Position numbers and translations under genes: made by a program. Below, in pieces: positions 12,143 to 36,147 of a stretch of 64,000 bases of DNA. The notes beneath the pieces are model-generated. The model made no database searches. It saw only the letters and a list, made by a program, of their open reading frames with translations, and was not told the DNA's origin. Within the stretch, counting starts at the first letter, position 1. Each line of letters begins with the position of its first letter. Origin of the DNA: Spironucleus salmonicida (lineage: Eukaryota). The stretch covers positions 1,747,797 through 1,811,796 of the forward strand of contig NC_090597.1 in assembly GCF_000497125.1 (NCBI RefSeq), written 5' to 3'.

Positions 12143-13144
12143 TCAAATCGTCCCGATATTTTCCTCTAATAATTTACTTCTTCTTGCGAGCTCGTAGAAA
12201 TAGCCATAATCGATTTAAACATTAAAATGCTCTAACTCTGGGCATTTCCATTCGTTATCTAACCAGAACTCACCTATAAACTATTTTCCCTCCTCAAAAA
12301 TGGTATCCTTAACTACATCGAGCTACAAATGACCAAAATTCACATGCTTGTCACACCCAACGAATTCCTAGCGTTCTAGAACCAAAAATTATCCAGGAAC
12401 CCGTTATATTTCCTGACGCCCTACACGCCAATCGAACAAACTCTGAAACGTATAAATACTAATTTTGAAGTTTGAAACTAGTATAATCCCAAAGATAAGG
12501 CGTCTAATATGATGCTTAAAAAAACCTTGACCGGAAATAGAGATCTTGTAGAAATTTCCTGATTAAGTCACACGAAAATGTGTGATTTTTCTTATAAATT
12601 CACGTGTATTCTTTGCATTTGGGAGAGAAGAGAATGGTGCAAAATTAAAAAAGGATAGCGAGGTCTCGAGAATTTCTTAAAGCATGTTTAAGCGATCTAA
12701 AGGCGAGAGTCTGTTGAAATCGGCTTGCTATTATAAGGTAGGGTCATCAATTGATGGTAGGGTCGATAATAGAAGGTATGATGGGATATAGTATGCATAG
12801 TTTCGACCAGTACAATATTTCAATGGATCGAACGATTTACAAACGCGTTGGAGAGAAAGGAATCTAATATCATTAGGGAGAAGAGACTTGAAAATTTATA
12901 GATTTTAGTCTGACATCTTAAGAAATAACGAAAATGCTGCTTAACAGGCTGACACACCTGAATCAGTACGGGATACGCGTTTGAAGTTAGCTTTTTGAGG
13001 ATTTTCGGACAGTTTTGATGCTGCTAGTGCATCAAAAAGTACCTATTCAACAGTTCTAGTTGGCTATTAACTGTTTTAGATCTAGGAACCATGAAAATGC
13101 TGGCCTTTGTAAGCGACTACTAGAAGGTAATATTGTAGTTTCAT
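12143..13144 (-). CDS. tRNA pseudouridine synthase, TruA family (Pus1/Pus3-like), 333 aa
   Basis: Contains VAYKGQHFHGSQIQ, RTVEQVL, the catalytic SRTDSGVSA and GQGFFKHHIRR. Confidence 0.92.
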
Positions 13145-13200
13145 TAAATATAAAATAGATAATAATATTATATAATATAATATTATAATGAAAAATCTAA

Positions 13201-14421
13201 TCAGCAACATCCAGATTTCTTTTCTCCAGTGATTGGTTCGGTAGGCTTAGAGATAACGGGAACATTGACTTATTCCTCATATTTGATCTAGTCAAACTTT
13301 AAATTAGTTAATATTTTATGAACACCAAAGCCAACTTTACAGCTAGTACCATAGAAACTTTAGATATTATTATTAGTAATAAAGGCCTCGACTTCTTCAG
13401 CAGATACTTGCTTTTCTAAATCGGATTTATTACCAATGAGTATTGGGATTAAGTCAGTATTTATCTATTTGATTTCCTTCATCCAGATATTAATATTTTC
13501 AAATGATTTTTTATTGTCATATGAAAAAACAAACACTACAAAGTTTGCAGAACGTACAGTTGCTGTGGTTGTAGCTTTATATTGTTCTTAACCTGCAGTA
13601 TCATAAATGACACACTTCACGTTAAATTTATCATTAAAACCAAACTCTTTGATTATTTAATCAGAACCAATAGTTGATACATTGTTCTCATTAAATGAGT
13701 CATTTTACCAGCGTTAGAAAATAGAAGTCTTTCCGGTATTAGAATCACCAATTAAAGCTACTTTGAAGAGTCTAGTTTAAATGGATGAATTTATTTTAGA
13801 ATAGCTAGGAGCTTCATAAAGCAAAGAATGATCTACAATTATACTATCCCCTGCTATATTCTCAACCTTGGCTTCAGATTTCTCCTCAGCCTTGGCTTCG
13901 GATTTCTCCTCAACCTTGTCTTCGGATTTCTCCTCAACCTTGGCTTCGGATTTCTCCTCAACCTTGGCTTCGGATTTCTCCTCAACCTTGGCTTCGGATT
14001 TCTCCTCAACCTTGTCTTCGGATTTCTCCTCAACCTTGTCTTCGGATTTCTCCTCAACCTTGGCTTCGGATTTCTCCTCAACCTTGTCTTCGGATTTCTC
14101 CTCAACCTTGTCTTCAGATTTCTCCTCAACCTTGGCTTCGGATTTCTCCTCAACCTTGTCTTCGGATTTCTCCTCAACCTTGTCTTCGGATTTCTCCTCA
14201 ACCTTGTCTTCAGATTTCTCCTCAACCTTGTCTTCAGATTTCTCCTCAACCTTGTCTTCGGATTTCTCCTCAACCTTGGCTTCGGATTTCTCCTCAACCT
14301 TGTCTTCAGATTTCTCCTCAACCTTGTCTTCAGATTTCTCCTCAACCTTGTCTTCGGATTTCTCTCTAATGGTGTCGATCTCACTATCGTTCTATTCCAA
14401 AATTAGATCACTTTAAGACAT
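13201..14421 (-). CDS. Rab-family small GTPase with a long N-terminal octapeptide-repeat extension, 406 aa
   Basis: G1 GDSNTGKTS, G2 STIG, G3 DTAGQE (Q encoded by TAA), G4 GNKSD, G5 GTSCK and a C-terminal SGCC prenylation motif. About 21 KSE[D/A]KVEE repeats lie in the same frame upstream. Confidence 0.93.
13860..14365. repeat. 24-bp tandem repeat (about 21 copies) inside the Rab gene
   Basis: Unit on + strand: CTCCTCAACCTTG[G/T]CTTC[G/A]GATTT. Variation is essentially limited to two positions. Confidence 0.98.
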
Positions 14422-14658
14422 TTTCAATGTATAATTTTTTAATAATATTAAATTTTTGGTATATAATATCTAGAATTATAATTTGTGGTTTAATAACATA
14501 TTAAATTATTTAATATAGAATTCATTAAGCAAATCCATATGAAAATAGAATTAATTATTAATATACAAAATATAATGCAAATATATTTTAAAATATTATT
14601 TTTTAATGTGTAGTATATTTGTTTAAAGAATTAAAATAATATAATTTCAAGTATCGGA

Positions 14659-16290
<1,632 letters not shown>

Positions 16291-23894: not shown

Positions 23895-24016
23895 TATATT
23901 TATATTAATTATTAATTTAATATTAGATATAATAATATTATTATTATTTTGATATTGATGTTAAAAATATAAAATATACTAACATAAAGTTAATAGAATT
24001 AAAAGTATAACAGTAC

Positions 24017-31484: not shown

Positions 31485-34400
31485 AATGATTTTTACAGTT
31501 CTCAATCCAATTCAAATATTGTAGTTATATTGATTGCAGTCATTATTGATATTTTCACTTAGTGTTCAGTATCAAAAAGTTTAAATATGACCAATCAAAA
31601 TAAATAGATGATGAATGAAGTTGACGGGTAGTTTAATTTATTCTTGAAATAGTAAAAGGTGAGTTAAACCCGGAAATACGCTATTATGAACGAAACATAA
31701 TAAATTTAATCAACAAAATCTGTTGCTATCTAGTAAACGATTCAAATATTAGATTAAATTATTATTAAAATAAATATTTTATCTAAATATTTTATTCTGG
31801 ATATTTAAATAAGTATGGAACTTCAGAATTGTTATCCACTGAAATCATTTTACTAGTTCAAATTACGTAAAATTTAATATAAATTTAAATGAAGGAGATA
31901 TTAACAGTTAGAATTATCTATGTATTGTATAAAAATACTCTAAAATTAATTCAGATTCGGTAAAAATATAAATAAAATAGTAAAATATATCTTCTTCCTA
32001 CGTTCGTAATCTAGTGTAAATTTATAAGATATCATCTTCATCCATATCAGAATATGTCAGTATATAACTAATCAATTGACTAATAAACTAGAAATTAATA
32101 CATTCAACAGTAAATTATAATTATTCATCTAAAGCCTTTATAATTACAATATGTATCAAGTATTCGGGTATAAAGAGGCTTACTAGTGAAAATAATTCCT
32201 ACCACCGTTTACAGTTATCAATTCCTGTCTCTTTATTAAATTCAACACGGAGGGGCTTTTTAAAATATTATATGAGTCATTAAACTAGTTAAATTAATTA
32301 AAACTAGATCATGCCACTTTTCTATTCACATATATAAGTCATATTTGGTATGAATCTTCAACTGAATAATTATTAGAATTAATATATATCTCACTTAAGC
32401 TGGAATCTTTATGATAATTCTAATGCATTATGTTAATAGAATAGTTAAAATAATATATTTAGATTCAAAATCAGTTAAAACTGGAATGTTGACAATATAT
32501 TATGTTAAGTGTATAGTCTTTTTTAATATATTAATTCTAATGTATCTCTTTTTAAATTTTTTATATCAAATGTAAAAGACATTATCATCATGTTAAATAT
32601 ATTCTTATGAAAAATAATTTTTATTAATAACAAGTAATTTAAAACTATAATTATAATTGTTTATTAGCAGATAATATATGACCTATAGATTTACTAATAA
32701 ATTACATTAAGGTAATTTAGTATTCAGACTCATTATATAATAAGTTGTTTATTTTAAATATAATCTAAGTAAACTTAACTATATTAAAACATCATAATTA
32801 GTATAATGAGTCCAATCATAAAAATCTATAAATTATGACTTATTATCTTAAAATCACTAATAAAACTTATATTATAAAGAAGAAAATAATATGTTTCTGA
32901 TGAATTATTATTATTTTAGATAAATGAGAAATGAAATTATTAAAAAAATTATTAAGAAATATTTCTATTCAAAATAAGAGATAATCATAAAATAGTTACA
33001 ATTTAATGTCTGAAAAATAATATTATCAGTAATAAGAAGCTTAAATATTATCCCAAGTATATTGGATGGTATCTAATTTACAGACTGACAATTGTACATA
33101 ACTTCATATAGATAATAATCTTTTACAAAATATTATAATATATTATTCATTTTAATTGCATAATTAATACATTAAAATCTGCTCTACAATATTTTAAATA
33201 TCAAAAAGACATTCTGTCAACAAATATTAATAAGTCCAATAACGTTATCAGTAAAACCAAATAATAAAACTAACTTTCATTATTTACTAATATGTATGTT
33301 TAAATAAGTATCGTATTTATATCTTTTGGTTTTCTATTAGATTACCTTATAAATATCATATTAATTAAATGATTAGAGTTACGAATAAATTTTTATTAAT
33401 TCAAAATAAATAGTCATAATTATATATTAAATCATTTCTGAAGTGAGATTATGTAATATTTTCTACCTTATAATAGTTTAAGTGGTATAATTTAAAAATT
33501 AAACAGATAATTTAAGCTAATTAATTATCGATGATTAATTTTATATTAACATTGTCATGAACAATTAAATTATAACAAAATTATATATAATATTAAATTT
33601 TAATAATTGTTCAATATTATAATAGTAAAAGAATAGTATTTTCATCACGAAATATAATATTTTTATCTATATTAAGAAAAATTGTTAAAATAATAATTAT
33701 TAAAAATTCTTAATACCAATAAAGTGTAGTCTAAGATGCGTAATGAAATATAATATAGTATAATAATTATGCACTTATTTTTACAGTCCTTAAATAAAAG
33801 TTATTAGGGGGTAAACATTGGTTTAAAATAGATCAATATTTATATTTAAACAAATTTCTGGATTAATTAGTAGTAAACTCTTAACCATATATACTCTAAT
33901 ATATTAATATTAATTATATTAAACAAAAATATTGTCAATTATATCTATTAAAAGAAAAATACTATGTTATAATAGATACATGCTTTTAAAAATATGGTAG
34001 ATAATAAAATTATAATTCTAAGGCAAGGGATATTATTAATAAATGTATCTGAAACAGAAAATTTAGCGTTTTAAAATTTACCAGGTAGAGTAATTAATCA
34101 ATTGATATTCTTAATATCATATTGAATTTATATCAAATAATTCATTAGAACTTGAATAAAATATTAGCGAATTTATATCTCCGTAAAATTTAGTTATTAT
34201 ATCTATAAACTAAATACTTATCACCTAATAGTGGTTTATAATAGTTTATTCAAACTGATTAAAATATTGAAATATCATAATTCTTTATACATAGAGTTTA
34301 TACATATTCTAAGATTGCTAGATACATATATAAAATTAAGAGTTTGATGAATATTATACCGCGTTTAGATCCATTCATAATTAGAATATGATTTGATTAA

Positions 34401-34711
34401 AAATTTAATTTTTTGTAAAAACTAAAGAAATAATGAAGCTGCCAATGGAACCTAAGTAGAAATATGTATATAATATTTTAAAGTTCAGGGTATTGTATAC
34501 TTAAGCTTTTCTGTTTCAATAATAATATATAAGTTATTGTATATAAATTGAAGCGGGTTGAAGTTATTAAATTAAATTAAGAATATTGGATAACACTATA
34601 TCTAAGAAAATTAATGATTATTTCAATATTTAATGACTAGGATCTTTTTAAGCTTTTATTATTAAATTATATACTGATTAATCAATATTTATTATATATG
34701 AATATATCTTA

Positions 34712-35074
34712 TCACTGACTAAAATAAATACTTAATATTATTATACTTAATAATAGTAATAGTGTTATTAAATTAGGGGCACGGGATTTTTAATTTAAGG
34801 TTTAGACATATTTAATTAAAAAATTTATATAATCTTATAATAAATCTACTATTTGATCATTATAATTTTCTGAGTGTTTATACTATTAAAACTATAACTA
34901 TAATTATAATATAGCTGATTAAATTACATAGACATGGCTCTTCTCAAGCATATTTGATTATAAACTTTTGTCCATCTTTTATATAAATTCTAAAATCTCA
35001 ACCCCCTTTTTATCTTCACCTTGCTAACTACTTAAGTCTGATAATACTATGTTAAGTTTTTGAGTAAAGTCCAT
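34712..35074 (-). CDS. Small tail-anchored helical protein (SNARE-like topology), 120 aa
   Basis: MDFTQKLNIVLSDL...YVQTLNQKSRAPNLITLLLLLSIIILSIYFSQ*: basic juxtamembrane segment plus C-terminal TM. Ends CAGTGA; head-to-head with the next gene. Confidence 0.6.
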
Positions 35075-35118
35075 TTAGTTTAAAAATATATATTATATTA
35101 TAATATCATTATTTTTAA

Positions 35119-36147
35119 ATGAAAATATATAATATTATTTATCAAAACTCACGAAAAAAGATAAGTCTTATAAATGACTGTTATATTACAGATAACTAGC
35201 ATACCTTCATTTTTGACAAGTAATTCGCTTCACTAACTGAAATTAATTCATTTATTAGCGATTTATCATTTCCAATTGTAAATATTTTTACTAAGCTTGC
35301 AATTTAGGATTCTTTACTATATTAAGATTTATAAAACAAAAATTAGATTGATAAATTACTTTAATCTTAGCATGTTTCATCATTTCTTATAAATGTTAAA
35401 TCACCTATTGTTGGTTTAAAATTTGGTATTTAATTTCCTAAAAATGATATCATTAATGTATTTATGAATGAAAATGCACCAAATAAAATTATTAACTATA
35501 TAAATAGAGTGTCATTGCTTATATAAAACTCTTCCACATATGACTAAAATAAACAAACTGCAACATTATTTTTTATTAGAAAGTATTACAGAATAATTAA
35601 ATAGTATCAGGAACCTAATTTAAAAAGATCATATTCATGTTCCAATTTAAGTTAAGCTGTTTTATACGTACCATAGCTCTTAAAACCGTTAGCAAAGGTT
35701 GTAAGCTCTTCTTAATAATCTAATTTTTTAAAATATACTCTTAAATATATAAGTTTAGATACAAAATCACCAGTTACAGTTTTTCTTAACTTATATTCAT
35801 TAACAAAAGTTAGAGTTGGAGCATATCATACTGGTATATAAATTTAAAATACAGAAATAGCTTATGGTGGTCATTAAAAAAACTGCAGTGGTATCTATTT
35901 TATATAACCAAAATCCAATAAATAGTTCTATTACCAAAAATAAATTATACTAGGATAATGTTCTCTGTCAATCGTAGAAATTATCACAATTTTAGATAAT
36001 ATTAGCATTAATTGGATGGGAAAATAATATAATATATTCGCAAAAAATTGTAATGATTTTAGTAATTAACTGAGCTTAATTTTATTGTAGCGCCCTATAC
36101 CAAAATGGGTTAATAATTTAGCATAATTTGGAAGAAAATTTATTTGA
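35119..36147 (+). CDS. PPPDE/DeSI-family isopeptidase with N-terminal extension, 342 aa
   Basis: C-terminal domain VFLNLYSL...GAYHTG...EIAYGGH...YNIFAKNCNDFS...PIPKWVN, with the His/Cys dyad intact. Confidence 0.9.

Follow-up and report, generated by a model that had tools for sequence, protein, structure and literature searches.

A Rab GTPase fused to a tandem octapeptide array

The 64,000-nt stretch of the Spironucleus salmonicida genome studied here (assembly GCF_000497125.1, contig NC_090597.1, positions 1,747,797 to 1,811,796 of the forward strand; hereafter the window, whose own numbering is used below) carries on its minus strand a gene for a Rab GTPase that is preceded by 21 tandem octapeptides of the form KSE[D/A]KVEE. 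With few exceptions, a Rab is a bare switch of about 200 aa. The protein encoded here has 406 aa, and about 216 aa lie ahead of the first Rab strand in the AlphaFold2 model, 168 of them in the repeat; an earlier note on this DNA, made from the sequence alone, had put the extension at roughly 210 aa, close to this measure. Taken together, the best explanation is a real, fused, atypical Rab with a disordered acidic N-terminal tail, which we regard as probable rather than certain.

The gene is a single uninterrupted open reading frame (ORF) of 406 codons (window 14421-13201, minus strand) in the translation by NCBI table 6, the genetic code used here, in which TAA and TAG specify Gln and TGA is the sole stop; 11 of its codons are TAA or TAG read as Gln. 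The ATG at 14421 matches the start context of S. salmonicida, AAA before the ATG plus an AT-rich/TATA zone (PMC3916229), and the in-frame ATGs upstream, at 14538 and 14499, are preceded by CAT and AAT, not AAA. The next in-frame ATG after 14421 is found at gene nucleotide 940, inside the GTPase, with all ATGs between them out of frame, and the stretch from the repeat to the G1 motif has no ATG in frame. Because it has no initiation codon of its own, the Rab domain can be made only as a fusion with the repeat. The fusion described in the earlier note is thus forced by the lack of any other in-frame ATG, and contigs of probable RNA runs are unbroken across the boundary.

Runs X5-X8 are presumed to be RNA, no run being on record as such. 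Contigs of X5 and X6 cover 13000-13918 and 13220-13918, respectively, and in both the Rab domain is continuous with about 61 nt of the array, with no joints reported. The stretch that holds the ATG and the upstream intergenic DNA (14403-14645) has no RNA-contig cover, and the two RNA runs, both from one study, are uninformative on the transcription start. A contig of X6 has a loose end of 10 T at 14645, which lies 13-14 nt beyond the TGA that ends the upstream PPi-PFK gene (minus strand; 14645-14661), and the mean 3' untranslated region (UTR) of S. salmonicida is 13.2 nt (PMC1805757). This end is a poly(A) site of PPi-PFK and leaves the gene an extremely short 3' UTR, as is typical in S. salmonicida; the match with the published length supports the runs being RNA. 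The whole S. salmonicida genome has three to four introns (PMC3916229). The Rab-repeat gene is real, consists of a single exon and is transcribed, as seen in the probable RNA runs.

The Rab domain

Residues 220-374 match Pfam Ras at 6.5e-36 (123.8 bits, where the cut-off is 21.6), and the best 60 of 536 PDB sequence matches are all Rab/Ypt/Sec4 proteins, with Rab10 and Rab8A first (about 4e-26 to 1e-25). All the nucleotide-binding motifs are present, namely G1 (GDSNTGKT), the switch-I threonine (T250), G3 (DTAGQE, with Q278), G4 (NKSD) and G5 (TSCK), and the protein ends in KKSGCC*, with C405 and C406 conserved in at least 90% of alignment A2 (71 sequences). AlphaFold2, run on the same alignment, modelled the Rab domain (about residues 211-380) at a predicted local distance difference test score (pLDDT) of 81-98. 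The top Foldseek matches to this model are all Rabs, among which Rab8a, Rab6, Sec4, Rab10 and Rab11 reach a target-normalised template modelling (TM) score of 0.87-0.91 (Rab8a, 0.90). Thus, the complete Rab with G1-G5 and a C-terminal CC, as claimed in the earlier note, is borne out by the motifs and by the Pfam match, and the CC end makes the protein a predicted substrate for double geranylgeranylation. No EF-hand or coiled-coil family was found by Pfam at E up to 0.01.

The Rab part resembles canonical Rab8/Rab10/Sec4, Rab1, Rab11 and Rab6 in fold, G motifs, catalytic Gln and CC tail, at 30-37% identity. In the 71-sequence alignment, the Rab domain retains the residues of the invariant and near-invariant columns except at W273 (of IWDTAGQE), where it has Tyr, and the RabF motifs (IGSDQ, KCVIY, QYKATT, TVRSA and FVFSYD, located by the Rab10 alignment) are identical to the published consensus (PMC2954822) at 9 of 27 positions. 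Bona fide protist Rabs are often divergent at the RabF sites (PMC2954822). The PDB matches scored 95.2 bits for Rab10, 94 for Rab8A, 90 for Rab11, 87.5 for Sec4 and 84.3 for Rab1a (2rhd). By these sequence comparisons the GTPase core is intact but divergent, and no Rab subfamily stands out.

The repeat array in DNA

Tandem Repeats Finder reported one array at 13861-14364, with a period of 24, 21.0 copies, 96% matches, 0% indels and a score of 903. It alone scores 80 or more in the window, besides a short AT-rich 32-bp tandem repeat at 23895-23977. In codon phase, the 21 units span 14361-13858, that is, residues 21-188. The commonest unit, present eight times, is AAATCCGAAGACAAGGTTGAGGAG (KSEDKVEE, with the Ser codon TCC); five further units encode KSEDKVEE with TCT, six encode KSEAKVEE (the GCC variant), and two degenerate units at the 3' end of the array encode KSEAKAEE and KSEAKVEN. 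The unit was found 20 times at up to three mismatches, where 0.00 were expected from 100 shuffles, so that the count of about 21 near-identical repeats on a 24-bp period in the earlier note agrees with what we found. Its two variable positions were also identified correctly, since only unit positions 6 (C in 15 units, T in 6; synonymous) and 11 (A in 13 units, C in 8; switching D/A) vary repeatedly, and three more positions vary as singletons. With 19 of the 21 units falling into three DNA types, the recent expansion or homogenisation suggested there is plausible. The repeat has 46% G+C, against 31% in the Rab part.

Short-read DNA contigs enter the array from both flanks and break inside it, and none of the listed pieces spans it. 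We set the depth of each listed array contig, relative to unique depth, against the number of times its 31-mers occur in the window. For DNA run X1, the two agree in all seven listed array contigs (for example, 3.1 against 3.0, 6.8 against 7.0 and 5.8 against 6.6). The assembly may itself derive from the best-matching DNA read set. For S. salmonicida, a chromosome-scale assembly from PacBio reads has been published (PMC9509377).

The repeat as a protein

The array is composed of 37% Glu, 25% Lys, 12.5% Ser, 12% Val, 8% Asp and 5% Ala. The fraction of charged residues in the repeat is 0.70, with a net charge per residue of -0.20 and a net charge of -33; the whole N-terminus carries -40 and the Rab part 0. 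AlphaFold2 gives residues 23-214 as coil with pLDDT below 50. These features suggest that the repeat is a long, well-mixed acidic polyampholyte, behaving as a flexible, intrinsically disordered tail rather than as a folded domain.

Residues 1-216 gave no feature match in the ESM Atlas, and their structural neighbours, all of them helical proteins, are all at TM below 0.3. Two copies of residues 1-216 were co-folded as a test of self-association; the score was 0.00, which we count neither for nor against it. Two Pfam families were matched by the repeat alone, Fibrinogen_BP (47.6 bits, cut-off 50) and Cornifin (47.4 bits, over the cut-off of 34.8). Both were rejected as periodic low-complexity matches, not homology.

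Relatives

An exhaustive HMMER search of 1.84 billion representative sequences returned 41,865 matches at E up to 0.001, none of which exceeds 54% identity to the Rab domain. The nearest relatives, P0021 and P0036, are fragments of 121-134 aa at 51-52% identity, the only ones above 50%, and share GDxNTGKTSIFQRW, FVFSYD and IPILIGNK with the Rab domain. A word-indexed search among proteins of 223-711 aa had 340 candidates, of which 10 reached E up to 1e-10, with the best non-self match at 43% identity; among shorter proteins the best match by the same search is at 38%, and in JGI metagenome contigs the best 80 of 233 relatives are all at 42% identity or less. The clusters of near matches carry no informative names beyond Paramecium proteins at 39% identity. 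No orthologue carrying the tail was found in the HMMER, word-indexed and JGI searches.

Five other proteins, P0156, P0146, P0079, P0099 and P0101, are prenylated Rabs with low-complexity N-terminal extensions of 55-160 aa. They resemble the Rab-repeat protein in having such an extension before the Rab and a C-terminal Cys motif (CC, CKC or CCKMQ), but they have no tandem repeats and are of other compositions; for example, the extension of P0156 is about 160 aa long and E/K/Q-rich (the protein ends in SSGCC), that of P0079 is Asn-rich and that of P0101 is Ser-rich. Their Rab domains share 36-43% identity with the one studied here, so they are not orthologues. Evidently, the Rab N-terminus accepts low-complexity additions repeatedly. 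Disordered N-terminal add-ons on protist Rabs may be commoner than the literature suggests. The top-scoring matches to the Rab domain, P0011-P0020, are proteins of 360-1700 aa with two to six Rab-like stretches, representing either genuine fusions of several Rabs or gene models that were run together in eukaryotic assemblies.

Gene layout, neighbours and annotation

The features of the gene are collected in Table 1.

Table 1. Layout of the Rab-repeat gene and its protein (coordinates in the window)
Feature	Coordinates	Strand	Remarks
Putative promoter and start context	14422..14491	minus	AAA directly before ATG; 90% A+T at -60 to -21, with TATA-like strings
Whole coding sequence	13201..14421	minus	TGA stop at 13201-13203; 406-aa atypical 'large' Rab, P0001; table-6 translation
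Unique leader, residues 1-20, MSQSDLILEQNDSEIDTIRE	14362..14421	minus	Low-confidence helix at residues 4-22 (AlphaFold2)
Repeat, residues 21-188, 21 in-frame 24-bp units KSE[D/A]KVEE	13858..14361	minus	Net charge -33; predicted disordered
Non-repeat linker, residues 189-216 (28 aa), IAGDSIIVDHSLLYEAPSYSKINSSIQT, without Met	13774..13857	minus	pLDDT 37-46
Rab GTPase domain, residues 217-385, G1-G5 motifs, catalytic Gln278	13267..13773	minus	Pfam, PDB, AlphaFold2, Foldseek
Hypervariable C-terminal tail, residues 386-406, ending -KKSGCC	13204..13266	minus	Di-cysteine geranylgeranylation motif

From 16389 to about 8150, the window holds a PFK, the Rab, a PseudoU_synth_1 protein, a WD40-like ORF and a class-I ValRS-type synthetase. 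The same order is found in consecutive locus tags of S. salmonicida, SS50377_14240 (PPi-PFK), 14241 ('Rab1a'), 14242 (pseudouridylate synthase), 14243 (WD40 hypothetical protein) and 14244 (valine-tRNA ligase) (PMC6397501 supplement). Moreover, SS50377_14241 is listed with the InterPro entry 'Fibrinogen binding protein' beside small-GTPase entries (PMC6397501 supplement), and this is the spurious family that the repeat matched in our Pfam scan of the window. Thus, the Rab-repeat gene most probably corresponds to SS50377_14241 (EST45669.1), whose annotation takes in the repeat. NCBI, UniRef, EukProt and MetaClust all contain the exact 406-aa sequence, which forms a singleton cluster. The expression of SS50377_14241 has been reported under oxygen (log2 fold change 0.38, adjusted P 0.15) and antioxidant (0.52, adjusted P 0.03) (PMC6397501 supplement); we did not take contig depths as expression levels.

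The name 'Rab1a' is probably a generic best match, judging from the sequence comparison: membership of the Rab1 subfamily is not supported, as Rab1a, at 84.3 bits, is below Rab10, Rab8A, Rab11 and Sec4. In supplement file 3 of PMC6397501, which has at least four 'Rab1a' rows and at least one IPR012969 row, Giardia Rab1a is paired with SS50377_11379, not 14241. The name is common to at least three further genes, and among the rows listed only SS50377_11379 is paired with Giardia Rab1a. The Giardia counterpart given for SS50377_14241 is a 'Spindle pole protein' (PMC6397501 supplement); this and the 'Fibrinogen binding protein' domain look like low-complexity artefacts of the charged repeat. No publication naming SS50377_14241 or EST45669.1 was found in the searched literature, and the Spironucleus and Fornicata literature on Rabs yielded no treatment of the gene; in the excerpts of the S. 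salmonicida genome paper, the matches to 'Rab' are to 'rabbit' (PMC3916229). The gene is thus already public with its repeat, under a misleading name, and its architecture is undescribed as far as the literature was searched.

Among named relatives, those closest to the neighbouring PPi-PFK (14662-16290, minus strand) belong to Fornicata, with 71% identity to Hexamita inflata, 62% to Dysnectes, 54% to Chilomastix and 51% to Kipferlia. The diplomonad lineage assumed in the earlier note, more narrowly that of the hexamitines, is therefore in accord with the 71% identity to Hexamita inflata and with the gene order of S. salmonicida. Downstream of the Rab, the pseudouridine synthase gene probably begins with ATG 13144, 57 nt beyond the stop of the Rab, and an X5 RNA contig spans both genes; the longest ORF of the synthase, from a start at 13210, would share 10 nt with the end of the Rab coding sequence.

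Under the standard code no sense-strand ORF is listed for the region of the Rab gene, the one ORF listed being an antisense reading through the repeat. This antisense ORF (13828-14406, plus strand), 192 aa of LLNL[GV]FGF units, is the sole long standard-code ORF across the region. Of the six frames across the array, three are open even by the standard code (in the sense frame there is no Gln codon) and five by table 6, a pitfall for gene-calling programs. Neither an Rfam nor a tRNA scan of the window gave a match. A trough of 19-21% G+C lies at 32001-36000, against a window mean of about 27%.

Comparison with known atypical Rabs

The closest published analogue of the Rab-repeat protein is RabD2 of Entamoeba histolytica (EhRabD2, EHI_164900), which has a 69-aa N-terminal EK-rich, predicted-disordered motif (PMC12522834). 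This motif is required for SDS-resistant self-association, and the protein is located on multivesicular bodies (PMC12522834). In the excerpts of their paper, which appeared in BMC Biol in 2025, the authors called an EK-rich N-terminal motif unique among Rabs (PMC12522834). The repeat studied here has the same feature, with 37% E and 25% K, pLDDT below 50 over residues 23-214, and a position directly before the Rab. Both proteins thus have a net-acidic Glu/Lys-rich extension that is predicted to be disordered and directly precedes a conserved Rab domain, both belong to anaerobic parasitic protists, and neither has an EF-hand or a coiled coil, as far as the excerpts on EhRabD2 go. On the other hand, the extension in Spironucleus is 216 aa long with 21 tandem octapeptides, while the motif of EhRabD2 is 69 aa long with no repeat mentioned in those excerpts. 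The self-association and location of EhRabD2 are experimental, whereas the Rab-repeat protein is known from sequence and models. An independent origin of the two tails is likely, because one organism belongs to Amoebozoa and the other to Metamonada.

The mammalian large Rabs, Rab44, Rab45/RASEF and Rab46, likewise carry a C-terminal Rab domain in a protein of far more than 200 aa (PMC8303950; PMC12522834). Their N-terminal parts influence self-association and localisation (PMC8303950; PMC12522834). They are of the EF-hand plus coiled-coil type in the excerpts of these papers, whereas the Rab-repeat protein has neither and its extension is a disordered simple repeat.

Discussion

The Rab-repeat protein would cycle on a membrane like any Rab. 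By analogy with EhRabD2, its tail may be a multivalent electrostatic module, which would tune the self-association or clustering of the Rab or limit the access of partners on its membrane, and the copy number of the repeat would set the strength of this effect. That the tail is such a module for self-association, clustering or partner access, and not a phospho-switch, is a tentative proposal, which we place somewhat short of even.

Several points weigh against these readings. The self-association of the Rab-repeat protein is proposed purely by analogy. Near-identical units indicate recent expansion, and this fits a neutral insertion as well as a functional one. P0021, one of the two nearest relatives, has only about 12 residues before its first (G1) strand, which hints at relatives without a tail, or its ORF may have been cut by a standard-code gene caller. 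It is the order of genes and the domain signature, rather than a comparison of sequences, that tie the gene to SS50377_14241. Finally, in DNA run X3, which is from the same sample as X1, all six listed array contigs are 3- to 6-fold too shallow (0.15-0.3 of the depth of 21 copies). The disagreement between X1 and X3 could come from library bias against a 46% G+C repeat, or it could be a real difference. On an assembly artefact in the array, which the earlier note had named as a refutation if long reads showed it, the short-read contigs give a divided answer, the depths in X1 fitting 21 copies and those in X3 falling short; the copy number of about 21 is likely correct.

The shallow X3 depths, together with short-read contigs that break in the array with none listed spanning it, also speak for an artefact, in which the repeat lies outside the protein (through a wrong start or splicing) or the array was inflated by assembly; in addition, TGA-only stops make spurious long ORFs common in S. 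salmonicida (PMC3916229). We consider an artefact very unlikely. No alternative in-frame ATG would give a Rab without the repeat, the RNA contigs are continuous over the boundary without joints, the depths in X1 fit the array of the window, the identical 406-aa sequence is found in several public sources, and an array of 504 bp is well within the span of long reads. A stronger contender, possible but on the doubtful side in our judgement, is that the repeat is a neutral passenger, a recent coding minisatellite tolerated at a permissive Rab N-terminus, and that the protein has an ordinary Rab function. The array appears young, with 19 of 21 units in three DNA types, no indels and two repeatedly variable positions, and no tailed orthologue was found in our searches. 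Unrelated low-complexity extensions on other prenylated Rabs (P0156, P0146, P0079 and P0101) suggest that such add-ons arise often, and N-terminal tags are tolerated by Rabs (Tetrahymena GFP-Rabs, PMC2954822; HA-RabD2, PMC12522834). However, the frame and the charge pattern are held across all 21 units, the repeat with its 46% G+C against 31% in the Rab part is unlike the AT-rich slippage that is typical of neutral low complexity here, and a comparable EK-rich tail is functional in Entamoeba (PMC12522834). For the repeat itself, we infer a young coding minisatellite that expanded at the Rab's N-terminus, an end generally tolerant of additions.

The remaining alternatives concern what the tail would do. 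The minimal consensus of CK2 is S/T-x-x-[D/E], and neurofilament repeats are of the proline-directed KSP type. The reading in the earlier note was of a spacer or tether that could vary in length and be phosphorylated, each unit offering a single regulatory Ser amid an acidic kinase-type context. There is indeed one Ser per unit with acidic flanks, the predicted disorder would leave the serines accessible, and Glu at -3 would suit an acidophilic site of the CK1 type. Nevertheless, the CK2-type context did not hold up, since Lys stands at +3 and none of the 21 repeat serines fits S-x-x-[D/E]; the three sites of this form in residues 1-216 are all in the leader. Of the likeness to neurofilament tails that was also drawn, the composition stands, but the unit is KSE and not proline-directed KSP, and with no Pro after Ser the logic of neurofilament phosphorylation is inapplicable. 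No phosphoproteomic data were found. Although the predicted disorder would be compatible with a flexible spacer, it does not show one, and we rate the phosphorylatable spacer as quite improbable. A rigid spacer, in which the repeat forms an ER/K single alpha-helix (SAH) or a coiled coil and fixes the distance of the GTPase or dimerises it, is suggested by the 62% E+K of the repeat and by structural neighbours in the Atlas that are all helical, if at TM below 0.3. Nevertheless, the charge pairs at i to i+4 are opposite in no case and of the same sign in 107 (33 and 33 at i to i+3), one Val in eight residues makes an 80-degree helix step and the only hydrophobic position of the unit, without a heptad pattern, and AlphaFold2 gives coil with pLDDT below 50. 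We rejected both helical forms, and give the rigid spacer hardly any credence.

These comparisons leave a real fused Rab with a disordered acidic tail as our preferred reading. A further step, that Spironucleus and Entamoeba, though unrelated, each acquired convergent 'EK-tail Rabs' in which the tail drives a multivalent, GTP-state-dependent clustering of the Rab on its organelle, and that in Spironucleus a fast-evolving copy number of the minisatellite sets the strength of this effect and so tunes a trafficking step from strain to strain, is an unlikely extension. In Rab44, Rab45 and Rab46 and in EhRabD2, N-terminal additions control self-association and localisation, as far as the excerpts go (PMC8303950; PMC12522834). 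The Rab-repeat gene would add a second case of an EK-rich N-terminus, larger and made of repeats, from a different eukaryotic supergroup than EhRabD2. If the tail is instead a neutral passenger, the gene would neatly exemplify how a Rab can tolerate a coding minisatellite at its permissive end. Transfection and tagging of S. salmonicida have been published, which makes the idea of a functional tail directly testable, and the interest of the gene is mainly as a possible convergent partner of EhRabD2 in a transfectable parasite.

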